Assembly (NCBI GenBank): GCA_041690105.1
Contig: JAWLHX010000003.1
Location: forward strand, 29,126-93,125
Reading direction: 5' to 3'
DNA: 64,000 nucleotides
DNA from: Phycisphaerae bacterium
Lineage (GTDB): Bacteria; Planctomycetota; Phycisphaerae; FEN-1346; JAACEH01
Part shown: positions 3,263 to 56,079 of the stretch, piece after piece
Numbering within the stretch: position 1 is the first letter of the stretch
How the letters are laid out: every line of letters begins with the position of its first letter
The notes under the pieces: model-generated
The model's database searches: none
Told to the model about the DNA's origin: nothing
The model's input: the letters and a program-made list of their open reading frames with translations, nothing else
Made by a program: the position numbers and the translations under genes

Positions 3263-3287
3263 TTTCGGGTAGAGCGAATCGTTCCGG

Positions 3288-3908
3288 CTATTCGCTCAGC
3301 GTCTCCAGATAATCGGTCAGGCTGGAGACGCGACCATCGGCGTAGACGCAGCGGCCCGGCTTCATCTTGCCCAGTTTCTCGTACAGGAGGTGCACATAGC
3401 TCTCGGTCAGGGTCTCGGCCTGCTGGCGGCCAAGTTGCTCGATGATGCTATGCACGGTTTGCTCGTCGGCGGCTTCGACTTCGGCAAACTGGCCCACCAA
3501 CGGCACCTGGTCCAGGGTAATCTCGCTGCCGTCGAGGTTCCATCGCCGGCGAATCTTCTGATAGCAGAAGACCTCAAAGTAGTTCATCCAGTGAAGGATG
3601 TCGCGCATGCCGCTGACGTCCGGCACCTCAACCTCGTGCTCCACCCGCACCTTCAGGTCGCCCACCTCGCGCGGGCCCTTGCAGGTAAGTCGCGGCGAAT
3701 GGTCGCCTTGCCGGGCGGCCTCGTCCAGTGGAACATCGAGCCGCATGCGCAGGGCCATGTCCTGCTCTATCAGCCTCTGCTCGGGGTGGTCGAAGAAGAT
3801 GTCCGTCTCCGACCAGGCGCCCCGATAGGTGGCTCCCAGCCGATCAATGGCCGCAACAAAGGCCGCCTCATCGTCAACACGCACTTTGGTCTCAATCTCT
3901 TTTCCCAT
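3288..3908 (-). CDS. CYTH-domain protein (class IV adenylate cyclase / triphosphatase-like)
   Basis: N-terminal EIETKVRV matches the CYTH ExExK signature; ~200 aa is typical of CYTH proteins. Confidence 0.6.
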   Translation of the reverse strand: MGKEIETKVRVDDEAAFVAAIDRLGATYRGAWSETDIFFDHPEQRLIEQDMALRMRLDVPLDEAARQGDHSPRLTCKGPREVGDLKVRVEHEVEVPDVSGMRDILHWMNYFEVFCYQKIRRRWNLDGSEITLDQVPLVGQFAEVEAADEQTVHSIIEQLGRQQAETLTESYVHLLYEKLGKMKPGRCVYADGRVSSLTDYLETLSE

Positions 3909-5695: not shown

Positions 5696-8071
5696 ATGCG
5701 TAACCAGCAGTTTTTAAACCACAAGTTGATTCATCGGTCAGTAAGTCGCCAGGCAGCAGCGTTTATTGCCGCCCTGCTGTCGCTGGTGCTGCTGCCTGAA
5801 CCTGCAACCGGCCAGATTCCTCTCCCCCCGCCCCCCGGGCATCCGCAAGGCCCTGCGGTGGCGGCACCAAGGGGGCCCAGCAACAATCTCAATACAAATG
5901 ATAAAAGCAACCCCAGCAACTCGCGCAGCACGGTTGACGCCAAAGAGCTTGCCAAAGCCATCGAAAAAGGCGCTAACTGGTTGCTCCAGCAGCAGTTGAA
6001 TGATGGCAGCATCAATGGCAGCGATGATGATACAGTTTTTGCCGCCATTGCAATGCTGGAGTGCGGGGCCACGGTGCGTTCGCCGGCAATTCAAAAAATG
6101 CTGGCCTACCTGGCCGCCCAGCGCAGCCGCGAGACGCGCTTTATTGCTCTGCGGGCAGAAGCCTTTGCCCTGGCCGCGGCAAGCGGAGGCCCGGCTGCCC
6201 GCCGCATATACGAACCGCTCGTAGCAGCCGATTTCAAAGTAATCCGCGAAAATCAGGACGAAAATGGCCTGTGGCAATATCGCGCCAGGCGAAATGCCGA
6301 CGTCGGGGTAACTTTCGATGTCGTGTGTGCAGTGCAATCGTGCGCCGCCGAAGGCTATCGCCTGCCCGATGCTGCCCTCCAGAACGTCATTGCTGCTTAC
6401 TTTTCGCTGCAGAACCGCAATGGTGGCTGGAGCTACAGTCCGGACGGGCCGGACCGGCAGATGAGTTTCCCCGACAGCACCATGAGCGCCCTTGCCTGCC
6501 TCATGGCCTACGGCCTCGACCCGAGCGGGACCGACGACGCCACCCGGCTCAACGACAAGCTGCAAACATCCATACAGTCGGGACTTACGTTCATGACAAA
6601 ATCGATCTCGCTGCGCGATGAAGCAAGGGGGCGGGACGATCGCGACCGAGGCTTCTATTCTCGTGCCTACATCATCGGCCGCATGCTCAAATACGTGGAC
6701 CTTGAGTCGCTGAGCAACGCCAAAATCGTTGCCGAGTGGGTGAATCCGGTAATGGCTCGCCAGCAGGACGATGGCCGCTGGCGCGGAGTCCGCGAGACGG
6801 CCTTCGTGCTCTACATGCTGGGCCAGCTCCGGCCGACGCCCATTATCGCCGAGATTACCGACACAACCAAGCCCCCCACCGCCAACCGCCTGCTGGTCAA
6901 CCAGACCAAAAGCCTGTCGCGGGCCCTGCCGCAACCTGTAACCTATTGCCGCGCAAGGCTTTCGGAGGACGAGCGGTACATGGACCTGCCCCTGATTGTG
7001 CTGGACGTGCCGGAGGACTGGAAACTGGCCGCCGAGGAGAGGCAGAACCTTATCGATTACGTGGCCGGTGGCGGAACGATTCTGCTGATTGCCCCCCTCC
7101 AGCAGCGCGAGGAGGCCGCCGCCCTGGCCGAAAAGCTGGCCGAGTTGTGGCCCCAGACGCCTCTGGAGGCCCTGCAGCGTAACGACCCCATGTGGACCGC
7201 TCGCGAGACGCCCAGCACAAAACCCATCTGCCATGGCCTCAGCGATGGCGTCCGCACGTTTCTGTTTGCCCTGAACAGGCACACGGCCATCGAGCTGGCT
7301 TTCGGCCGCTACGGTACGCGTGGCAGCAACATGGCCACCATCAACAACATTCTGGCCTATGCCTCCGAGGGCCGCTTCGAGTCCGGGCAGTTGCTGGCCG
7401 AAGAGCCTGCCGATACCGCCGAGCCGCAAATTGGCCCGCAGAAGATCGTGGCCATCGGGGCGGCGACGGCCGAAGAATCCGATTTTCAGAAGCTTGGCCT
7501 GCCCGTTGCTCCGTACAACGGTTTTGCCGCGGCCGCCGGCCTGTTGCCCGCCAGCGCCGGTGTGAAGGTGCTGGGGCCCAAAGCCATCAATGCCGCCGAT
7601 GAGAATCTGGGTCTGTGTGACCTGCTTTACGTGCCCATTTCGTCCAGCACGGATTTCAGTCAGGATGAGCTCGACGGCTTGAAGAAGTACATTGCCGAGG
7701 GCGGTTTCGTCTTCATCGAGGGCCGTGCCGGCGAGCTTGCCGCCGACCGTAACACGAAGAAAATCATCGACTCCCTTGGCCTGAAGGCCGAGAGCGTCCG
7801 CGACCACAGCCTGCTTTCCGGCCAGTTTGCCGACCCGGCCAGGGGCTACAACGTGCAGCAACTGGCCGTCCGGCAAGATGGCAAACTGCTCCCGGCCCGC
7901 AATACCGACCTCCGGGTGCTCAAATCCGGCGAGCTCATTGTCGGCGTTTACAGTCCGCTGGATCTGGTCGTCTCGGCCAGCGGCATACCCTGCTTCGGCC
8001 TCCGCGGCTACGCCACCAACGACGCCCGCCGCATACTGGCCAACCTGATTATCCACCGCACCACGCGCTGA
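5696..8071 (+). CDS. Large secreted two-domain protein: N-terminal prenyltransferase/squalene-cyclase-like alpha-toroid repeats, C-terminal DUF4159-like (class-I glutamine-amidotransferase-like fold) domains
   Basis: Signal-peptide-like N-terminus (AAFIAALLSLVLLPEPATG). KAIEKGANWLLQQQLNDGS and repeated GxW / Q-W motifs of the terpenoid cyclase/prenyltransferase repeat family. C-terminal LIVLDVPEDW...GGTILLIAP and YIAEGGFVFIEG blocks resemble DUF4159 / ThuA-like domains common in Planctomycetes. The antisense 772-aa ORF is a shadow. Confidence 0.6.
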   Translation: MRNQQFLNHKLIHRSVSRQAAAFIAALLSLVLLPEPATGQIPLPPPPGHPQGPAVAAPRGPSNNLNTNDKSNPSNSRSTVDAKELAKAIEKGANWLLQQQLNDGSINGSDDDTVFAAIAMLECGATVRSPAIQKMLAYLAAQRSRETRFIALRAEAFALAAASGGPAARRIYEPLVAADFKVIRENQDENGLWQYRARRNADVGVTFDVVCAVQSCAAEGYRLPDAALQNVIAAYFSLQNRNGGWSYSPDGPDRQMSFPDSTMSALACLMAYGLDPSGTDDATRLNDKLQTSIQSGLTFMTKSISLRDEARGRDDRDRGFYSRAYIIGRMLKYVDLESLSNAKIVAEWVNPVMARQQDDGRWRGVRETAFVLYMLGQLRPTPIIAEITDTTKPPTANRLLVNQTKSLSRALPQPVTYCRARLSEDERYMDLPLIVLDVPEDWKLAAEERQNLIDYVAGGGTILLIAPLQQREEAAALAEKLAELWPQTPLEALQRNDPMWTARETPSTKPICHGLSDGVRTFLFALNRHTAIELAFGRYGTRGSNMATINNILAYASEGRFESGQLLAEEPADTAEPQIGPQKIVAIGAATAEESDFQKLGLPVAPYNGFAAAAGLLPASAGVKVLGPKAINAADENLGLCDLLYVPISSSTDFSQDELDGLKKYIAEGGFVFIEGRAGELAADRNTKKIIDSLGLKAESVRDHSLLSGQFADPARGYNVQQLAVRQDGKLLPARNTDLRVLKSGELIVGVYSPLDLVVSASGIPCFGLRGYATNDARRILANLIIHRTTR

Positions 8072-8395
8072 CCGGCGGCCGTTGTCGTTCTAAAGCCCCC
8101 TGCACTGCAGGGGGATGTCGTTGCCGTTGCTTCTTTTGATTTAAACTCGCGGAGTTGCTGCGTTTCGATCCCCCGGCAATGCCGGGGGCTTCAAAAGGCC
8201 TTCGCCACGGTGGGCGTTGCCGTTGCCGCGGCCGTTGTCGTTCTAAAGCCCCCTGCACTGCAGGGGGATGTCGTTACCGTTGCTTTCTTTTGATTTAAAA
8301 CTCGCGGAGTTGCTGCGTTGCGATCCCCCGGCAATGCCGGGGGCTTCAAAGGCAACGGCAATGGCAAAGGCAACAGAAACGGGCCGAGGGGCCAG
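8072..8395. repeat. Tandem duplication (2 x ~150 bp) of a GC-rich two-hairpin intergenic repeat element (type 1)
   Basis: Unit GGCCGTTGTCGTTCTAAAGCCCCCTGCACTGCAGGGGGATGTCGTTGCCGTTGCTTCTTTTGATTTAAACTCGCGGAGTTGCTGCGTTTCGATCCCCCGGCAATGCCGGGGGCTTCAAA occurs at ~8077-8215 and ~8229-8365 at >90% identity. Contains two 9-bp-stem hairpins (CCCCCTGCA/TGCAGGGGG and CCCCCGGCA/TGCCGGGGG) and GTTGCCGTTG / CAACGGCAA runs. Confidence 0.8.
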
Positions 8396-8462
8396 ATGCC
8401 CCCCGGCACTCACGGCCAGGATGGCCGTGCCACCGGGTGAAGAAGCATTGCCGATGGTGCGT

Positions 8463-9596
8463 TTAATCGGCCGTTGCGGTGCTCCAGGTGATGGTGACTG
8501 GTTGGCCGTCGGGCATTATGTCTACCAGTATGTTGCCCTCGGCGATGCGCGTGGTCAGGGCATTTGCCGGGGCGGCGTCGCCCTGGACTGTGGCCCGGGC
8601 GCTGGTGGCCTGTGGGGCGGGGATGACTACGGTCAGCGGCACCTGGAAGACGTCGGCCGGCTCAAGACGGGTGGCAATGCTGAGGCGGATTGAATTCTCA
8701 CCGCGTTCGATAACCTCCAGCCTGGCTGCCTCGCGGGCCCGAATGTAACGGCCAATCGTCCCCATGGGCGCTATCCAGATGGTATCTTTCTGCGAATCGA
8801 GCCACTGGCAGTGAGTGCGGAATTCGTCTTTGCTCTTAAAGGGCGACCAGCCGGCACCGACGATGGAATGAATGATGGCCACAAACCAGCCGCCCTCGTC
8901 GCGGCAGGCGATGATTCTCTGCCGTGTCCGCTCGTCGTCCCACTGCCGCCTGTCGGTATTGCCGTAGCCGGCGGTTGTCATAATCGGAAATTGAGCCGAA
9001 CTGCGGATGAAGTAATGCTTTTCGAGGATCTTCCGTCGCACGTTTTCGGTGGCCCTTGAGCCGCCTGGCAGAGCATAGGTTACGGGCGTGACATCGGTCT
9101 TCTCCCTGATCAGCCGCCAGGACTCGTTAATCAGGAAACCGAGCCGCTCGTCGGTGGCCTCGTGCAGCTTTTCTTTGATGGCCCCATGGGTGCCGATTTC
9201 GTGCCCGGCGGCATGCAATTCCTTGGCCTGCTGCCAGGAGATCATGTTGCCGCCCATGGCCGGGTTTTCCATGTGCATGGGGATGAGAAAGAAGGTGCCC
9301 TTCAGGCCTAGAGGATCGAGAATTTCGCGGGCGTCGGCCACCTCCTGCCGAAAGCCATCGTCGAAGGTCAGGCTGAGTGCGCCCCGGCGATTTCCGTAAT
9401 AGTCGGCAATTCTCGGCATGATCTGCTCCTTCTGGCCTTCATCTTGGGGCGCAGCCAGTTTAACGACGGGCGCTGCGGCCGTGGCCAGCGCGGGATCGGT
9501 GCTGGCGGTGGTCCCGGCATCATCGGGCCGGCATCCTGTGCTTACGATACTGAACAATACGACCATCATGGCCAGCGTTGCGATAGTTCTCAGCAT
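8463..9596 (-). CDS. Polysaccharide deacetylase (CE4 / NodB-homology) lipoprotein
   Basis: NodB motif LTFDDGFRQ; N-terminal lipoprotein-like signal (LFSIVSTGC). Confidence 0.8.
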   Translation of the reverse strand: MLRTIATLAMMVVLFSIVSTGCRPDDAGTTASTDPALATAAAPVVKLAAPQDEGQKEQIMPRIADYYGNRRGALSLTFDDGFRQEVADAREILDPLGLKGTFFLIPMHMENPAMGGNMISWQQAKELHAAGHEIGTHGAIKEKLHEATDERLGFLINESWRLIREKTDVTPVTYALPGGSRATENVRRKILEKHYFIRSSAQFPIMTTAGYGNTDRRQWDDERTRQRIIACRDEGGWFVAIIHSIVGAGWSPFKSKDEFRTHCQWLDSQKDTIWIAPMGTIGRYIRAREAARLEVIERGENSIRLSIATRLEPADVFQVPLTVVIPAPQATSARATVQGDAAPANALTTRIAEGNILVDIMPDGQPVTITWSTATAD

Positions 9597-22780: not shown

Positions 22781-23040
22781 CCCGTTCCTCTTCTCCTCCC
22801 GCCCTGAGCCCTGTCGAAGGGCTTGACGGGAGAGGAGTTTCTTTACACTTCTCCCTTGACGGGAGAAGGTGGACCGTAGGGCCGGATGAGGGTGCGGCCG
22901 TGGGCGCAAGAGCGAGCAATTTTCCGCGCAGCCGTCACCCCCACCTGTCTCCGGCATGTGCCGGAGACATCCTCCCCCGTCAAGGGGGAGGGGTTAGCGG
23001 CAACGGCAACGACGAACGGCAACGGCAATTGCTCTTGACA
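22781..23040. repeat. Type-2 GC-rich intergenic repeat element (copy A, with internal 40-bp duplication) plus CAACGGCAACG run
   Basis: Shares with 38750-38950: CCCGCCCTGAGC...CGAAGGGCTTGACGGGAGA...AGGTGGNCCGTAGGGCCGGATGAGGGTG...CACCCCCACCTGTCTCCG...CGGAGACATCCTCCCCCGTCAAGGGGGAGGGGTT...GGCAACGGC. Contains the hairpin CCTCCCCC-GTCAA-GGGGGAGG and the palindrome GTCTCCGGCATGTGCCGGAGAC. Confidence 0.75.
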
Positions 23041-38749: not shown

Positions 38750-38950
38750 CTGTCGTTACCCTTCTCACCCGCCCTGAGCTCCGCCGAAGGGCTTGACGGG
38801 AGAAGGTGGCCCGTAGGGCCGGATGAGGGTGAGGTTGTTGAGAGGGCGAAGAGCTTTCCTCGCGGCCGACACCCCCACCTGTCTCCGCTTCGCGGAGACA
38901 TCCTCCCCCGTCAAGGGGGAGGGGTTTAACGGCAACGGCTGAGGCTGAGA
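38750..38950. repeat. Type-2 GC-rich intergenic repeat element (copy B) between ispA and dxs
   Basis: ~85% identical over shared blocks to 22781-23040, including the CCTCCCCC-GTCAA-GGGGGAGG hairpin, the CACCCCCACCTGTCTCCG block and the terminal AACGGCAACGGC. Confidence 0.75.
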
Positions 38951-41918: not shown

Positions 41919-42218
41919 TTGGTGCTGATGGCAGAAATTAGAATCAGTGGTTATTACTGCAAGGGCTGCGGGCTGTGCATCGATGCCTGCCCGTCGCAGT
42001 GCCTGCGCATAAGTTCGTCGCTGAATGACACCGGCGTACAGGTGGCCGAGGTAGTCGATGGCGGCATATGCAGGGGCTGCCTGCAATGTCATGCCGTCTG
42101 CCCGGATGCCGCAATCGAGATCCTGGTGGCTGCCAGAAAATCGCAGAAGGCGGCCGCATCGGCCGGCAGTGTCGGCGGGGGACAGAAGAAGTCGGAGGGA
42201 GCCGCCGGTGATAGATAA
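41919..42218 (+). CDS. 2-oxoacid:ferredoxin oxidoreductase delta subunit (2x[4Fe-4S] ferredoxin)
   Basis: Two CxxCxxCxxxCP motifs (CKGCGLCIDACP; CRGCLQCHAVCP); first of four por-like genes. Confidence 0.75.
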   Translation: MVLMAEIRISGYYCKGCGLCIDACPSQCLRISSSLNDTGVQVAEVVDGGICRGCLQCHAVCPDAAIEILVAARKSQKAAASAGSVGGGQKKSEGAAGDR

Positions 42219-43287
42219 TGGTTCCGCAACAAGCGAACTGATTCTGATGGCCGGTAACGTGGCCGCGGCCGAGGGCGCTGTGCGTGCCGGCTGCCGGCAT
42301 TACTTCGGCTATCCGATAACGCCGCAAAACGATCTGCCGGAATACATGTCGTCGCGCATGCCGGAGATTGGCGGCACGTTCATCCAGGCCGAGAGCGAAT
42401 TGGCAGCCATCAGCATGGTGCACGGTGCGGCCGCGGCCGGTGCTCCAGCAATGACCAGCAGCAGCAGTCCGGGTATCAGCCTGAAGCAGGAAGGGCTGAG
42501 CTACATGGCTGGCAGCCAGTTGCCCTGCCTGCTTGTGAACGTGCAGCGTGCGGGGCCGGGTCTGGGCGACGTGCGATGTGCCCAGGGCGATTATTTTCAG
42601 GCCACCCGGGGCGGCGGTCACGGCGATTACTATCATCCGGTGCTCGCCCCATATACGGTGCAGGAGACTTACGACCTGGCCTACGAGGGCCTGCTGATGG
42701 CCATGCGTTACCGCACGCCGGTCATGATTCTGTCCGATCAGCAGTTAGGCCAGATGATGGAGCCGGTGGAACTGAGCCCGATGCGTCCGCTGCCTGACAA
42801 ATGGCCTGATTGGGCTTTGACCGGGGCTGCCGGCGGGCGTCCGCGAAATTACATCCACAGTTACTGCGGGCGGCCCGGCGAGCTGGTGGCTCTTAATCGG
42901 ACGCTGATGGATAAGTGCGAGCAGATGAGCCGGGACCTGTTGCGATTTGAATCGGTTGCTACAGACGACGCCGAACTTGTTTTAGTGGCTTATGGCACCA
43001 GTGCCCGGCTGGCCAAGGCGGCGGTGGCTCGCTGCCGGGCGGCCGGGTTGAAGGTTGGTCTTTTGCGGCCGATTACCTTGTGGCCCTTCCCGAGCGATGA
43101 GCTTGCAGCCCTGGCCGAAAAGGGCAAGCGCATGCTGGTGGTTGAGATGAGTTGGGGCCAGATGGTGCAGGACGTGCGGCTGGCGGTTAATGGTGTGGTG
43201 TCGGTTGGTTTGGAAAACACCTTTGGCGGCGATGTGCCGAGCATCGGCAGCATTGTTCAGCGGATTAAGCAGGAACTTGGCGCTTAG
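42208..43287 (+). CDS. 2-oxoacid:ferredoxin oxidoreductase alpha subunit
   Basis: Probable GTG start ~42208 (the track ORF begins further upstream in the same frame, overlapping the delta gene). ELILMAGNVAAAEGAVRAGCRHYFGYPITPQNDL is the canonical PorA/KorA/VorB N-terminus. Confidence 0.75.
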   Translation: MIDNGSATSELILMAGNVAAAEGAVRAGCRHYFGYPITPQNDLPEYMSSRMPEIGGTFIQAESELAAISMVHGAAAAGAPAMTSSSSPGISLKQEGLSYMAGSQLPCLLVNVQRAGPGLGDVRCAQGDYFQATRGGGHGDYYHPVLAPYTVQETYDLAYEGLLMAMRYRTPVMILSDQQLGQMMEPVELSPMRPLPDKWPDWALTGAAGGRPRNYIHSYCGRPGELVALNRTLMDKCEQMSRDLLRFESVATDDAELVLVAYGTSARLAKAAVARCRAAGLKVGLLRPITLWPFPSDELAALAEKGKRMLVVEMSWGQMVQDVRLAVNGVVSVGLENTFGGDVPSIGSIVQRIKQELGA

Positions 43288-43289
43288 TG

Positions 43290-43575
43290 GTGCTTGCGGC
43301 GGTAGATTAAGAGGCAAGGCAACGGCAGAAGAAACTTGCGTTTTTTGGCGTGCGGACATGGCAGATAAGCACCCACAAACGAGTTTGTGGGTGGCACCCG
43401 CGGGGGATTAATACGGCAACGGCAGAAGAAACGGCGTCCCCCGGCAGTGCCGGGGGCTTCAACGGCAACATCAACGGCAACGGCAACAGCAGCAACAATC
43501 GCAGAGCAGCAATAATCGCAGAGCAGCGGCAGTCGCAGAGATGCAGCAGCGCTTGGTATGGCGGTGGCAATTAGC
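43290..43575. repeat. ~290-bp repeat-rich intergenic region inside the por operon (type-1 hairpin fragment, direct repeats, 11-bp-stem hairpin)
   Basis: GCACCCACAAACGAGTTTGTGGGTGGC perfect hairpin; CAACGGCAGAAGAAAC x2; CCCCCGGCAGTGCCGGGGGCTTCAACGGCAAC (type-1 hairpin); AATCGCAGAGCAGC x2; CAACGGCAAC runs. Confidence 0.75.
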
Positions 43576-43585
43576 CTGATTCGAG

Positions 43586-44356
43586 GTGGTTATGTCGGAA
43601 GATATGGTATTAAAGGCAGGTCGTCCGCAGTCGATGTCGGAAGCCCGGACTCATTATTGCCCCGGTTGCGGCCATGGCATCGCCCATCGGCTGATAATGG
43701 AACTGGTTGACGAGATGGACCTGCGCGAGCGCATAATCGGCATAGCGCCAGTGGGCTGCGCGGTGGTGGCTTATCATTACTTTGACCTGGACATGTGCGA
43801 GGCCGCTCATGGCCGGGCTCCGGCGGTGGCCACGGGCATAAAGCGGGTGCATCCGGACAAGCTGGTATTCAGTTACCAGGGCGACGGCGATCTGGCGGCC
43901 ATCGGCACCAACGAAATAATTCATGCGGCCAACCGCGGCGAGCTGATAAGCGTGATCTTCGTCAACAATACCTGCTACGGGATGACCGGCGGCCAGATGG
44001 CTCCGACCACGATTGTGGGCCAGAAGACCAGCACCACGCCGCACGGTCGTAACCTGCTGAGCGAGGGGCCGCCGTTGCGCGTATCGGAGATGCTGGCCCA
44101 GTTGGAGCGGGTGGTTTATGCCGAGCGCTGCATGCTGACTACGGCCCGTGAGATCGGCAAGGCCAAGAAGGCCATTGCCCGCAGTTTGCGCTGCCAGATG
44201 GAAGGCAAGGGCTTCAGCATTGTTGAATTGCTGTCGGCCTGCCCGACCCACTGGCGTATGAACCCGAGCGATGCCCGCGATTACATTGAATCGCGACTGA
44301 CGAAGGATTTTCCGCTGGGCGTGATCAAAAATACTGCCTGGCCGGATGAGGCCTGA
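43586..44356 (+). CDS. 2-oxoacid:ferredoxin oxidoreductase beta subunit (TPP-binding)
   Basis: HYCPGCGHGIAHRL cysteine motif and TPP-binding GDGD region typical of PorB/KorB. Confidence 0.8.
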   Translation: MVMSEDMVLKAGRPQSMSEARTHYCPGCGHGIAHRLIMELVDEMDLRERIIGIAPVGCAVVAYHYFDLDMCEAAHGRAPAVATGIKRVHPDKLVFSYQGDGDLAAIGTNEIIHAANRGELISVIFVNNTCYGMTGGQMAPTTIVGQKTSTTPHGRNLLSEGPPLRVSEMLAQLERVVYAERCMLTTAREIGKAKKAIARSLRCQMEGKGFSIVELLSACPTHWRMNPSDARDYIESRLTKDFPLGVIKNTAWPDEA

Positions 44357-44471: not shown

Positions 44472-45056
44472 GTGCCGACGAGAGACGATAGTGAAGGACG
44501 GATCAGCATGGACGAACGTATTCTTCTGGCTGGGGCAGGTGGGCAGGGGGCGCTGACAATCGGCAAGTTTATCGCCGAGCTGCTGATGAGCAAGCACCGG
44601 GTGACCTGGTTTCCGAGCTATGGGGCGGAGGTCCGCGGGGGCACGGCCCACTGCCATGTGGTGATCAGCGATGATGAGATTGCCAACCCGGTGGTTGAGG
44701 AGGCGACGGCCCTGCTGATGATGAATCAGCCGAGTTACCTGCGCTTTCGCCAGCGACTGCAGAGCGATGGCGTGCTGGTGACGAATTCGTCGATGATTGT
44801 GCTCGATCCGCCAACGCCGGCATCGGTTGTGGTGGAGGTTGCAGCCTCGGAGCTGGCCAGCAAAATGGGCGACATCCGGGTGGCGAACATGATCATGCTC
44901 GGGGCCCTGAACCAGGTGAAGCCGCTGATGACGGTGGACGAGCTTAACGGCATGGTCGACAAAGTGCTCGGCACATCACCATCGAAAGCCCGCATAAGTG
45001 ACCTGAACAAACAGGCCTTTCTGGTAGGGCAGAAAGAAGCAGCGGTGGAGCTTTAA
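44472..45056 (+). CDS. 2-oxoacid:ferredoxin oxidoreductase gamma subunit
   Basis: ILLAGAGGQGALTIGKFIAELL N-terminus typical of the POR gamma domain. A likelier start is the internal ATG ~44508 (GAAGGA RBS). Confidence 0.75.
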   Translation: MPTRDDSEGRISMDERILLAGAGGQGALTIGKFIAELLMSKHRVTWFPSYGAEVRGGTAHCHVVISDDEIANPVVEEATALLMMNQPSYLRFRQRLQSDGVLVTNSSMIVLDPPTPASVVVEVAASELASKMGDIRVANMIMLGALNQVKPLMTVDELNGMVDKVLGTSPSKARISDLNKQAFLVGQKEAAVEL

Positions 45057-45069
45057 CGGGCATGGGCTG

Positions 45070-45400
45070 ACTTCGTCAGACCATGGCACAGATTTATCCT
45101 TCTTCTAACCATCTTCCGTTTGGCCTTTGAAGCCCCCGGCACTGCCGGGGGATTCGAATGTCAGCAAACTCCGCGGGTCCAAAACAAAGAAGCAACGGCA
45201 ACGACATCCCCCTGCAGTGCAGGGGGCTTTAGAACGACAACGGCCGCGACAACGGCAAGGGCCTCCCGCGGCGAATTGTTTTAAGCCCCCGGCACTGCCG
45301 GGGGATCGAACGTCAGCATTCTCTGCAATTCGAATGAGCACCCGGCGGCACAAAACATTAACGTCAACAGCAACAATCAACGGTCGCGGCGGCGGTAGAG
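45070..45400. repeat. Type-1 two-hairpin repeat element in reverse orientation, plus a second partial copy
   Basis: 45121-45250 is the reverse complement (~85-90% identity) of the 8077-8215 unit (GAAGCCCCCGGCACTGCCGGGGGAT...AAGAAGCAACGGCAACGACATCCCCCTGCAGTGCAGGGGGCTTTAGAACGACAACGGCC). A second hairpin copy lies at ~45285-45310 (AAGCCCCCGGCACTGCCGGGGGATCGAACG), and CAACAGCAACAATCAACGG runs follow. Confidence 0.8.
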
Positions 45401-45401
45401 G

Positions 45402-46775
45402 TCAGCTTGCCGGTACGATTTGTGGCGGGGTTTCGCCTGCTTCGGTCATGCGCTTAATGAGTCGGGCGGCCAGTTCGGTCCGGACATCGGCCAGTGCCGG
45501 ATCGGCAACAAGATTGTTCTTTTGATGCGGATCGGCCAGATTGTCGTAGAGGTAGTCTTCGGCGTAGAGGTCACTGTCGGGATAGTCGACTCCGCTGAGC
45601 TCCGGGGCCCTGACGCTGTAGGTCCAGCGGTGGGTGCGGATGGCCCGGCCGACGTGGCTTTCGCTTATCTGGACAAAGACGTCGTCGGGCCAGTCGGCGG
45701 GGGCTTCGCCGCAGGCCAGGGCTTGCAGCGGCCGGCCCTGCATGGTTGGCAGAGGCTGACGGCCACCGGCGGTCAGCACGGTTGGCGGCAGGTCGATCAG
45801 GCTGACCAGTTGCTCCACCACTTTGCCGCCGGTAAAGCCTGGGCCGCGGATTATCATCGGGATACGCAGGCAACTGTCGTGACAGGATCGCTTGTATTCC
45901 CCGTTGCGGGTGCGGAAGTGGCAGCCGTGGTCGCTGGTATAGATGATCAGCGTATTGTCCAGAATGCCCTGCCGCTGGAGTTCCTGGCGGATTCGTCCGA
46001 AGTTGGCGTCGAGACTGGCGCAGCAGCCGAGGTAGTCCGGATAGTTTTCGCGCCAATCGCCATCGGTTCCGCGGAGATCGCCGGGTACGTCAAAATCGGC
46101 GAATCGCTGTTTGCTGCCTTCGGGCCCTTCGAAACGGTTGTGGTCGTTCTGGTGGTGCGGCTCGATGTATGACAGAAACATGAAGAATGGCTGGCTTTGG
46201 CCCTCGCGGCTGCGCAGATACTGCAGGGCAAAATCGGTCTGGCAATCGGCCCGATAGCCCTTGAATTCCACCTTGTTCATCTCGGCGTCAAACATGAATC
46301 CATCGTAGCCATGGCTGGTTGATTCCAGGGTATCGGCCGCCATCCAGAACTCGTTCCACCCGCCGCGGCGCTCGGGCGGGGTGGCCACGGTGCGGTAATT
46401 CTGCTCCGGAATCTGCTGCTGGCCGACTTTGCCGCCACTTGAGGCCAGGTGCCATTTGCCGACGTAGGCCAGGCTGTAATCGGAATCGGCCATTTCGTGG
46501 GCGATGGTGCGCTCGTCTTGCGGCAGGGCGATATGGTTGCGGAAGCAGCCGATCTCGGTGGCGTATCGGCCGGTCTGGAGGCACGAGCGGGCCGGGCCGC
46601 AGACGGGCTGACAGGTGAAGGCCCGGTCGAATCGGACGCCCTCGGCTGCCAACTGGTCCAGGTTTGGCGTTATGTTCAGCCTTTGGCCGTAGCAGCCCAT
46701 GGTGTCCCAGCGTTGTTGATCGGAGAAGACGAAAAGGATGCTGGGCCGGGAGTCGGGGGCGGTCATAATTGTCAT
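45402..46775 (-). CDS. Sulfatase (formylglycine-dependent arylsulfatase family)
   Basis: SILFVFSDQQRWDTMGCYGQ and the C-x-P-x-R formylglycine motif (CQPVCGPARSCLQTG); 457 aa. Confidence 0.85.
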   Translation of the reverse strand: MTIMTAPDSRPSILFVFSDQQRWDTMGCYGQRLNITPNLDQLAAEGVRFDRAFTCQPVCGPARSCLQTGRYATEIGCFRNHIALPQDERTIAHEMADSDYSLAYVGKWHLASSGGKVGQQQIPEQNYRTVATPPERRGGWNEFWMAADTLESTSHGYDGFMFDAEMNKVEFKGYRADCQTDFALQYLRSREGQSQPFFMFLSYIEPHHQNDHNRFEGPEGSKQRFADFDVPGDLRGTDGDWRENYPDYLGCCASLDANFGRIRQELQRQGILDNTLIIYTSDHGCHFRTRNGEYKRSCHDSCLRIPMIIRGPGFTGGKVVEQLVSLIDLPPTVLTAGGRQPLPTMQGRPLQALACGEAPADWPDDVFVQISESHVGRAIRTHRWTYSVRAPELSGVDYPDSDLYAEDYLYDNLADPHQKNNLVADPALADVRTELAARLIKRMTEAGETPPQIVPAS

Positions 46776-53901: not shown

Positions 53902-54600
53902 ATGAAGTATGCAACTGGGGCCGTCGGAATCGTGTTGTTGCTGCTGGTAGCAACTGGCAGCGCTTCCGGGGCTTTGACCGACTGGGGCAGCGGTCAGGTC
54001 AGAATGGTAACTGACGCCGATGAAGGGTTCATGCCGGGGCGTGAGATTTTACAGGCCTGGCACAAATACGATGCCGGCACGCACTATTTCCGGATTGACC
54101 TGGAGACGGCGCCCATGGGGCCGCCGCATTTGCCGCCGAGCTTTGCCGGCATTTATGGCTTTGCCATCAATACGGACCTTGCCAGCGGGGCCGACGGCTT
54201 TCATCCGTACCTGGCTTATGCCCCGAACGTGCAGAACATCGATTATCTGATCGATGCCCACTATGAATCGTTTTCGCCGTACCCGAATCCGGCCCAGTTG
54301 CTGTACAGCCATTATCACGACTGGGAGGATACGGCGTTTGCGGTCGAGCCGCTGGACAGCGTTGGCGGGCAGTTCCAGCGCAGCGGACCGAGCACGCTGG
54401 AGTGGTCCATTGCGGATGATCTGATCGGCAGCCCGGGAGCCACGAGGTTCAGCTGGTGCGCCTACAGTCTGGATGCCGGCAGCGAGACGGCCAAGTATGA
54501 CCTGGCCTGCTCGTTCATACCGGAACCTCTGACAATGCTGGCTTTCGGTATGGGGCTGGCTGGCGTGGGCGGTTATGTGCGCCGCAGGATTAAAGGCTGA
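53902..54600 (+). CDS. PEP-CTERM-anchored secreted protein, paralog A (uncharacterised ~200-aa domain)
   Basis: Signal peptide (VGIVLLLLVATGSASGA); C-terminal IPEPLTMLAFGMGLAGVGGYVRRRIKG PEP-CTERM sorting signal; ~55% identical to paralog B. Confidence 0.75.
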   Translation: MKYATGAVGIVLLLLVATGSASGALTDWGSGQVRMVTDADEGFMPGREILQAWHKYDAGTHYFRIDLETAPMGPPHLPPSFAGIYGFAINTDLASGADGFHPYLAYAPNVQNIDYLIDAHYESFSPYPNPAQLLYSHYHDWEDTAFAVEPLDSVGGQFQRSGPSTLEWSIADDLIGSPGATRFSWCAYSLDAGSETAKYDLACSFIPEPLTMLAFGMGLAGVGGYVRRRIKG

Positions 54601-55380
54601 AGATGAGAGTTTTGTGAAGAGGTTGAAACTTGCCGACCCGGCCGCGGGAGCAGTGTCCCGGGGGTCGGCAAGAGCTTGGAGTGGTGCAGGCTGTAACGTG
54701 CTGCGAGTGCTGTACATCAGAATGCGGCATTGAAGCGTAGGACTATGGGGATAGTTGCTGCAAGCGCTTTGAATGCCTGTCGTACGAGGGAAAACCGAGG
54801 GGGACTGCGGCCGGCGTTTCTGGTTGCTGCCTGGCGACTTGTGCCATTGTGGTGCGGGTTGCGGCAGTGCCGAAAGCCGTCGGTCGCGGGCGACGGAAGA
54901 ATCTTCGCCTGCTGTCATCTGGGGCGGAGGCCGATCGGAACGGAGCGATCGGTTTGGCGTGTCCGTCGTCGGGTGCGACTGCGGAAAAGGATTTTGCGCA
55001 GTTCACCGTCTTGCTGAGTGCGGGTGACTGATTCTGCTGAAGTTACTGGCAGGGTTGGCGCCGCCGGCATGGCCGCAGAGCGGCCGGAATGGTTCCTTCG
55101 TACGAAAGGCGTTGACATGAGCGTGATGTTCGGCAGGAAACTTACCAGCATTACAGTTGCCCGCCATCGCGAGTACCCTCTGTGGGTATGGCCACGCCGC
55201 GTACGAGTGTGTGAACCTGACCAGCCAATCGAAGCCGAAGCATCAGTTGGACAGACGGCCTGTGTTTGTGGAGGGTCTGCCTGCTGGAAAACTCTGCGCA
55301 GAACATCGGCCGGGGATAAACTCACTTGCGGTCACGACGGGCGTGGCCAGAAGAAACAACTCGTTAAGGGGGACACTGTA

Positions 55381-56079
55381 ATGAACAAACTGCGTGTACT
55401 GACAACTTTGATTGTGCTGTTGCTGATGTGTAGCCCATCGTGGGCGGCGTTGACAGATTGGGGCGTTGGAGCTGTTGAGCATGTTGCCGATCCGGATGAG
55501 GGCTTCATGGCCGGCCGCGAAATTCTTAATGCGTGGCACAAGTACGACGTGGAGAGCCAGATGCATTTCTTCAAGATGGAGCTGAAGGCTGCTCCGATGG
55601 GGCCTGTCCATCTGGAGCCGAGCTTCGCCGGCATCTACGGATTTGCCCTGAATACCGACCTTGGCACGGGTATTGACGGCTTTACGCCGGGCTTGACCTA
55701 TGCTCCGAATGTGCCTTCGATTGACTATTTGATTGACGCGCATTACGAGTACGCGGGCATTCTGGCTGCTCCGCCTGCCTTCCAGGTTGCCCATTATCAT
55801 GAATGGGACGAGCCGCTTTTTGTTACCGAGAATCTGCTCTCGATTGGCGGCGACTATGCACGCACCGGCAAAGTTCTGGAATGGGCCGTGCCAGACAGCC
55901 TGATCGGCAACCCCGGTTCCGAGCGGTTCTCCTGGTGCGCCTACACGCTTGACGGCGGCAGCGAGACGGCCAAGTATGACGTGGCCTGCTCGGTTATTCC
56001 GGAGCCGCTGACCATGGCTGGTCTTGGTCTGGGGCTGGCCGGCGTAGCGGGCTACCTGCGTCGTCGCAAAGCGGCCTGA
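55381..56079 (+). CDS. PEP-CTERM-anchored secreted protein, paralog B
   Basis: Start at ATG 55381 (MNKLRVLTTLIVLLLMCSPSWAALTDWG; AGGGGGA RBS); the track ORF begins at 55018 in the same frame. C-terminal IPEPLTMAGLGLGLAGVAGYLRRRKAA. Shared blocks with A: ALTDWG, EGFMxGREILxAWHKYD, PSFAGIYGFAxNTDL, IDYLIDAHYE, RFSWCAYxLDxGSETAKYD. Confidence 0.75.
   Translation: MNKLRVLTTLIVLLLMCSPSWAALTDWGVGAVEHVADPDEGFMAGREILNAWHKYDVESQMHFFKMELKAAPMGPVHLEPSFAGIYGFALNTDLGTGIDGFTPGLTYAPNVPSIDYLIDAHYEYAGILAAPPAFQVAHYHEWDEPLFVTENLLSIGGDYARTGKVLEWAVPDSLIGNPGSERFSWCAYTLDGGSETAKYDVACSVIPEPLTMAGLGLGLAGVAGYLRRRKAA

Follow-up and report, generated by a model that had tools for sequence, protein, structure and literature searches.

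A probable BIME-like cluster of REP-type palindromes between two convergent genes: relation to a Planctomycetota repeat family, Y1 transposases and IS200-group ends

The repeat between the gamma subunit and sulfatase genes

In the 64-kb stretch of DNA analysed here (the window), the region 45100-45400 carries a repeat with three GC-rich hairpins. As the initial annotation had placed it, a POR/VOR gamma subunit gene lies on one side and a convergent sulfatase gene on the other; both assignments are supported by Pfam. The features of the region are as follows.

44472-45056, + strand: 2-oxoacid:ferredoxin oxidoreductase gamma subunit gene, left neighbour (Pfam POR, E 4.9e-30)
45061-45085, + strand: separate small hairpin, CATGGGCTGAC-TTC-GTCAGACCATG, then a T-rich stretch, just past the gamma-subunit stop codon
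45124-45247, + strand: full repeat unit, with hairpins B1 and A separated by a 56-nt spacer and followed by the conserved right flank CTTTAGAACGACAACGGCCGC
45133-45151, foot on the + strand: hairpin B1, GAAG-CCCCCGGC-ACT-GCCGGGGG-ATTC, with an 8-bp stem on folding
45208-45226, foot on the - strand: hairpin A, AAAG-CCCCCTGC-ACT-GCAGGGGG-ATGT, inverted relative to B1 and B2
45286-45304, foot on the + strand: hairpin B2, TAAG-CCCCCGGC-ACT-GCCGGGGG-ATCG
45305-45385, + strand: diverged half unit, 63.6% identical to the reference unit, with a hexamer tract of the CAACAG/CAACGG type at its end
45402-46775, - strand: sulfatase gene, right neighbour, convergent (Pfam Sulfatase, E 1.7e-51)

The initial annotation had described 45121-45250 as an inverted copy of 8077-8215 and had proposed a pairwise alignment as a check. 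Global alignment of 45121-45250 with the reverse complement of 8077-8215 gave 114 identical columns out of 127 (89.8%) with four single-base gaps, which bears the description out. In a repeat search of the whole window, 45186-45247 was complementary to 8075-8136 at 100% over 62 nt, and 45190-45266 was complementary to 8209-8285 at 94%. The full unit 45124-45247 was 88.5% identical to the reverse complement of 8228-8355. The second hairpin copy and the partial second unit with hexamer runs, both described there, were also found: CCCCCGGCACTGCCGGGGG recurs at 45286-45304 and is followed by the diverged half unit, which has CAACAG/CAACGG runs 3′ of the third hairpin, ends in GTCAACAGCAACAATCAACGG and stops 16 nt short of the sulfatase stop codon. 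The element at 45124-45385 thus amounts to 1.5 units, and that at 8075-8382 to two units.

The same short peptide, KQRQRHPPAVQGALERQRP, had been noted in the open reading frames (ORFs) 45127-45525(+) and 8049-8258(-), and it is present in both. This sharing is what would be expected of a small conserved gene. The peptide, however, spans the 62-nt perfect DNA core alone, the four single-base indels in the 127 aligned columns shift the frame between copies, and ORF 45127-45525(+) enters the sulfatase gene antisense. The shared peptide is therefore a trivial by-product of DNA identity. Since indels between the copies break any common frame, the repeat is best treated as non-coding, and a protein-coding function is extremely improbable.

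Copies elsewhere in the window and their effect on transcription

The hairpin pattern had eight matches in the window, compared with 0.02 expected from shuffled sequences. Copies were seen at three sites, and all eight hairpins lie inside three intergenic spacers bounded by Pfam-supported genes. Besides the region described above, the copies and the tracts that accompany them are the following.

8075-8382, - strand: two complete units in tandem, oppositely oriented, reading A-B-A-B on the + strand
8096-8114, foot on the + strand: hairpin A
8170-8188, foot on the - strand: hairpin B
8249-8267, foot on the + strand: hairpin A
8325-8343, foot on the - strand: hairpin B
43438-43456, foot on the - strand: solo hairpin B, in the 298-nt alpha/beta spacer of the vor operon
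43460-43491, + strand: (CAACGG)n hexamer tract directly adjoining the CTT side of the solo hairpin, an arrangement shared by the other copies
8215-8242, 8347-8373, 22998-23028, 43460-43491, 45238-45265 and 45359-45385: hexamer tracts of the window

The array at 8075-8382 lies between the convergent genes 5696-8071(+) and 8463-9596(-). It has a period of 153-155 nt with 2.2 copies, and its two units are 85.2% identical to each other.

The palindrome core is 19 nt long, with an 8-bp stem of the form C5-N-GC, a 3-nt loop A(C/T)T, a foot AAG and a tail AT. The hairpins of the window are strand-asymmetric, one strand reading (A/G/T)AAG-stem-loop-stem-AT. Type B is CCCCCGGC-AnT-GCCGGGGG and type A is CCCCCTGC-ACT-GCAGGGGG; the two stems differ by one compensated change, from G-C to T-A. 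Judged by the foot, neighbouring hairpins are opposite in orientation, giving B-A-B at 45133(+), 45208(-) and 45286(+). The conserved unit, from CCTTTGAAGCCCCC to GGGGGCTTTAGAACGACAACGGCCGC (about 125-130 nt), is an inverted palindrome doublet with a 56-nt spacer. This B-56 nt-A doublet is about 90% conserved between two distant loci, in three copies in all. On folding, hairpins A and B2 can pair instead into one long REPIN-like stem. A BIME is defined as a mosaic of REPs that alternate in orientation and have conserved spacers between them, often in tandem; the copies here have this organisation, with a period of 153-155 nt. A CRISPR array was also considered and rejected. Such an array has many direct repeats of 24-48 nt with unique spacers of similar length, whereas the window has just 2.2 units of 153 nt, in which the "spacers" are repeats too; the match to Rfam CRISPR-DR9 scored 23.8 bits against a threshold of 45.

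Hexamers of the CAACGG type had 23 matches in the window (0.96 expected), adjoining the hairpins on the CTT side. Almost all of the matches were beside the hairpin repeat or beside a second repeat family. The tracts could be an insertion target, the footprint of the reaction or part of the element. The second repeat ("type 2", about 160-200 nt) is unrelated to the first; it occurs at 22798-22995 and 38768-38926 and ends in CCTCCCCCGTCAAGGGGGAGGGGTT, followed by a (CGGCAA)n tract.

The solo hairpin at 43438 lies in the 298-nt spacer between the genes for the alpha subunit (42058-43287) and the beta subunit (43586-44356). In relatives with alpha subunits 70-78% identical and with conserved upstream synteny, the corresponding spacers measured 13, 37, 112 and 243 nt, and the hairpin was absent from the orthologous spacer in all four. 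For this reason, the hairpin copies look like lineage-specific insertions.

Other repeats were observed in the same vorB-vorA spacer. Two copies of an 18-nt direct repeat, GGCAACGGCAGAAGAAAC, at 43318 and 43415, bracket a 79-nt piece with a hairpin (43369-43393) and a half-palindrome, CCCGCGGGGGAT, at 43397; the stretch 43318-43432 looks like another small insertion with duplication. Directly past the solo hairpin and its hexamer tract, about three copies of a 17-nt tandem repeat, AGCAGCAACAATCGCAG, extend over 43488-43549. In one relative (locus L049, 11081-11323), a type 2-related element fills the vor alpha-beta spacer.

The initial annotation had proposed that the GC-rich hairpins act as a bidirectional intrinsic terminator, halting transcription from both convergent genes. 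Two of the three sites do lie between convergent genes. RNA fold prediction, another check named there, recovered the 8-bp stems in the minimum free energy folds; the stems are very stable, and folding of the 345-nt intergenic region gave z values of -4.5 (+ strand) and -3.3 (- strand). E. coli REP elements, moreover, can attenuate transcription or stabilise upstream mRNA. Nevertheless, no T/U tract follows either hairpin type on either strand, the following sequences being ATTCGAAT, CTTTAGAA, ATCGAACG, CTTCAAAG and similar, and a terminator scan of both strands did not report hairpins A and B. Terminator-like hairpins separate from the repeat are found instead, one per site, directly past one of the stop codons: 45061-45085(+) after the gamma gene, a candidate native terminator outside the repeat, and 8407-8383(-) after the deacetylase gene. 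In addition, one copy lies between the alpha and beta genes inside the vor operon, where a strong terminator would be harmful. Finally, the hairpin family flanks a transposase gene in relatives (see below) and forms arrays, and termination requires neither. Because of the missing T-tails and the copy inside the operon spacer, the terminator proposal lacks support as the primary explanation, and we consider it unlikely. The hairpins may have a secondary effect on transcript 3′ ends; such effects (3′-end protection, pausing) would be a by-product and not the work of a designed bidirectional terminator. The position between convergent genes points to where insertions are tolerated.

The strong predicted folding, together with the asymmetry of foot and loop, which implies that one strand matters, could also be read as a structured non-coding or cis-regulatory RNA made from the intergenic region. 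Rfam scans at the gathering threshold, however, gave no match in the window and only two tRNAs in 12 loci. An Rfam scan of 7900-8500 by E-value returned nothing beyond sub-threshold hairpin look-alikes (miRNA precursors and CRISPR-DR9), and a tRNA scan of the window found none. Relative to the genes beside them, the copies face either way. From genome to genome there is no conservation of the spacers that separate the hairpins, and association with a transposase acting on single-stranded DNA accounts for the strand asymmetry equally well. We regard an RNA of this kind as very improbable.

Related hairpins and Y1 transposase genes in other genomes

For occurrence elsewhere, one genome per species was scanned for exact matches to a 22-base pattern of hairpin plus flank, AAGCCCCCGGCANTGCCGGGGGA. 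It was found at 45 loci at least, and among the matches listed about 34 were in Planctomycetota metagenome-assembled genomes (MAGs), several of which had many hairpin loci each. In the planctomycete loci, an inverted partner hairpin usually lies 4-70 nt away, and its stem has C-G, A-T, T-A or G-C at position 6. A metagenome scan with the 29-nt A module gave no match; one with a pattern of hairpin plus ATGNTTAC gave a contig of M_DeepCast as its sole match. A plasmid search with the window element had no match.

We compared 83 distinct oriented hairpins. The AG of the foot was invariant, the A before it and the A of the tail were each present in at least 90%, and the foot can be written (C/A)AAG. 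The loop was A-(C/T)-T on the foot strand, so that foot, tail and loop are all strand-specific. The stem pair 11-19 (stem position 6) took all four Watson-Crick types, a count that is partly circular, as the hairpins were chosen as palindromes and their pairing percentage is true by construction. The other MAGs showed a trend to extragenic location (p ~9e-4) when the longest stop-free frame was used, a method that is unreliable in GC-rich DNA: 47% of the hairpins in these GC-rich genomes still lay under frames of 900 nt or more.

In the Planctomycetales MAG CSMAG_1454 (locus L030) there are six hairpins, with a 155-amino-acid ORF between two hairpin clusters. The ORF matches Pfam Y1_Tnp (E 1.1e-7; 32.5 bits, curated cutoff 23), and its product falls under the NCBIfam cutoffs for IS200 transposase and for REP-associated tyrosine transposase (REP_Tyr_transposase). 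The protein has an N-terminal YFLTWTTYGTWLPGD-RGW motif, the HUH motif NHVH, WWT-GSKR, and RYV-NQ with the Y motif YVMNQ. Its family has more than 2000 members at E <=1e-5, many of them named "REP element-mobilizing transposase RayT" (JGI) or "transposase [Planctomycetota bacterium]" (NCBI). In the same locus, about seven copies of a 22-nt tandem repeat, CCGGGGGATTATTTTTCCCACA, lie at 3275-3425 between the two hairpins of one doublet; this array amounts to an iterated 3′ arm and tail of the palindrome.

Six loci with such a Y1 gene were compared. In four of them (L030, L054, L055 and L057), hairpins of the same type lie on both flanks of the gene, the arrangement known as a REPtron: a Y1 HUH gene between copies of one palindrome. 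In L058, related hairpins are found only upstream of the Y1 gene, and in L056 the homologue (50% identity) is flanked by different repeats. This pairing of Y1 gene and hairpin across the six loci is the pattern to be expected if repeat and enzyme co-evolve. Locus L054 comes from the same MAG as the hairpin locus L014 and has alternating hairpins with a 155-nt tandem period. The hairpins of L055 are bordered by GCAACGGCAAC tracts and stand in a CAT-hairpin-CTTAGAA context, as do the window copies; its hexamer tracts, at 2830-2900 and 3500-3620, border the hairpins around the Y1 gene.

By motif, profile and tblastn searches, the window itself holds no Y1 gene. A tblastn search with E. coli TnpA-REP found nothing convincing in the window or the planctomycete loci. 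With IS200 TnpA as the query, the only match was in L024, and there was none in the window or the planctomycete loci. In profile comparison (hhalign), the planctomycete Y1 family aligned to the TnpA of ISMex34 from the HUH motif to the Y motif (E ~1e-4) and weakly to E. coli TnpA-REP, around HUH only (E 0.018). Its best solved relatives are the IS200-family transposases 2F4F, 2EC2 and 2XM3. As a separate observation, a Rhodocyclaceae locus (L007, 895-1443, - strand) carries a RAYT-like Y1 gene (NHVH ... YIELNP) with a weak match to TnpA-REP, 4.3 kb from an IS200-type hairpin.

Affinity to IS200-group ends and REP systems

The matches outside the planctomycetes share an additional tail, GGGGGATGyTTAC. 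When plasmids were searched with this end, the same 33 nt turned up on p2META1 of Methylorubrum extorquens and on a Fukatsuia plasmid, in each case 55-75 nt downstream of an annotated tnpA of the IS200/IS605 family (ISMex34). From this location downstream of tnpA, the match can be recognised as a right-end subterminal hairpin: annotated IS200-group elements (ISMex34 and the element on the Fukatsuia plasmid) have AAAGCCCCCGGCnnnGCCGGGGGATGyTTAC at their right end, and a similar hairpin stands at their left end. In locus L024, a fragment of IS200 tnpA, detected by tblastn with IS200 TnpA, lies 100 nt upstream of the hairpin. Y1 HUH transposases recognise such hairpins in single-stranded DNA, as in IS608 and ISDra2 (PMC3597680, PMC6006769). 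Judged by its sequence, foot and tail included, the window hairpin corresponds to an IS200-type right-end hairpin.

Two observations were made at other loci with such ends. In the Clostridia MAGs RGIG1656 and RGIG1828, six contigs (L012, L013, L019, L028, L038 and L039) share a terminal sequence of about 110 nt whose last part is the IS200-type right-end hairpin plus TGTTTACT, and the sequences diverge straight after it; this is a multi-copy insertion sequence breaking the assembly. In L011, the hairpin marks the exact end of an aldehyde dehydrogenase ORF (6070-6602) that accounts for only positions 2-141 of a 461-position profile. An IS200-type end may have interrupted this gene, or the junction may be an assembly artefact in this MAG of ~2.7x coverage.

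The hairpin with its flanks, AAAG-CCCCCGGC-nnn-GCCGGGGG-ATGyTTAC, is thus nearly identical in the window and in the IS200 group (ISMex34). The window, however, has no adjacent tnpA, its hairpins are inverted instead of direct and are multiplied into arrays, and the TTAC tail, mostly lost in the family, is absent from the window copies, which have ATCG, ATTC or ATGT in its place.

These similarities raise the alternative of a miniature IS200/IS605 derivative (PATE/MITE) composed of insertion sequence ends, with a genuine IS200 TnpA as the mobilising enzyme. The agreement of the hairpin and its flanks with an IS200-group right end speaks for it, as does one planctomycete locus (L036) that still has the ATGCTTAC tail, and MITEs derived from IS200/IS605 (PATEs) are a known class (PMC3119063). 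Like PATEs, the window element is short, non-autonomous and related to hairpin ends of the IS200/IS605 type (PMC3119063); unlike them, it has no established left-end/right-end pair, target site or boundaries. An IS200/IS605 element or PATE is bounded by left-end and right-end hairpins in the same orientation, with a defined target or cleavage tetranucleotide and, if autonomous, a tnpA. Hairpins A and B are both right-end-like and mutually inverted, so that they form inverted doublets and not a direct left-end/right-end pair. Moreover, the planctomycete loci surrounding the hairpins, about 250 kb in total, yielded no IS200-type tnpA. The Y1 gene that does stand beside hairpins scores below the NCBIfam IS200 cutoff; its neighbours are housekeeping genes, and hairpin clusters lie to either side of it, as in a REPtron. 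We therefore think a miniature element of this type an improbable explanation.

As in REP/BIME/REPIN elements with their RAYTs (E. coli REP, PDB 4ER8), the palindromes are short and GC-rich, and one strand carries a conserved unpaired foot. A REP is a palindrome of 20-40 nt that can fold into a stem-loop; the core here, of 19 nt, folds in this way. As in E. coli REPs and BIMEs, the copies in the window are extragenic, alternate in orientation and form mosaic tandem clusters. The inverted doublets can form a longer stem, as REPINs do, and in relatives the clusters flank a small single-domain Y1 HUH gene, as in RAYT systems. There are also differences. Published REPs form two super-families by their foot, GTAG and CGTC (PMC3733652), whereas the planctomycete foot, although conserved, is (C/A)AAG. 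The planctomycete hairpin has a perfect 8-bp C5-N-GC stem and a 3-nt loop, and the planctomycete Y1 protein aligns better with IS200 TnpA than with E. coli TnpA-REP.

Class 3 TnpA-Y1 proteins, described by Quentin et al. (2018), are found mainly in Planctomycetes, and their genes are flanked by repeated hairpins in a REPtron-like arrangement (PMC6006769). The Y1 family described here shares with class 3 the HUH motif NHVH, a W-T motif, a Y motif related to that of class 1 and an extended N-terminal conservation (PMC6006769). The paper, however, gives a "CnGA" foot and "weaker" structures for class 3, while the hairpins here are strong and have an AAG foot (PMC6006769). Going by motifs only, the planctomycete Y1 family appears to fit class 3. 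The supplement of PMC6006769 had no match for the hairpin sequence or the planctomycete names.

Because the hairpins flank a Y1 gene in relatives, we regard the repeat as a mobile repeat of the REP/BIME type. The region 45100-45400 is likely to be a BIME-like cluster of three REP-type palindromes that belong to a Planctomycetota repeat family. Under this explanation, the hairpins would extrude in single-stranded DNA. A small Y1 HUH tyrosine transposase of a divergent IS200-like clade, called RayT in JGI annotation, would bind them there and cut and join them in trans. The enzyme would spread hairpins into intergenic DNA, and local duplication would then build the arrays, with REPIN-like doublets in tandem at a period of about 153 nt. 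For this particular genome, we infer mobilisation by a Y1 enzyme by analogy with the relatives.

A more tentative proposal, which we put forward as possible but doubtful, is that this REP system stands near its IS200 origin: an IS200-type transposase would have been domesticated into a REPtron a second time, independently and recently, with (CAACGG)n as target or footprint. Under that proposal, IS200 TnpA and these REPs might possibly show cross-recognition. REP, BIME and REPIN elements, RAYTs and the planctomycete class 3 Y1 proteins have all been published; what is new here is the family defined by its foot and hairpin. That the hairpin is nearly identical to IS200 right ends is an evolutionary pointer and not a new principle.

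As a REP-type family, one selfish repeat would explain three odd intergenic regions in the window and many more in Planctomycetota MAGs. It would help to account for the breaks of planctomycete assemblies at such sites, and it serves as a warning that small ORFs overlapping these repeats should not be annotated. The link between the hairpin, the IS200 right end and the Y1 clade offers a test system for the origin of REPtrons from insertion sequences.

Two other features of the window were observed. Near 35 kb the GC skew rises from about 0.02 to 0.15-0.2, and it remains high over the rest of the window, with the cumulative minimum near 7-8 kb; the jump may reflect a switch related to replication or the boundary of a rearrangement. 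A 188-nt direct repeat (76% identity) occurs at 54397-54584 and 55876-56063, 1479 nt apart. Its copies lie inside or beside ORFs 53902-54600 and 55018-56079, which are probably paralogous genes.
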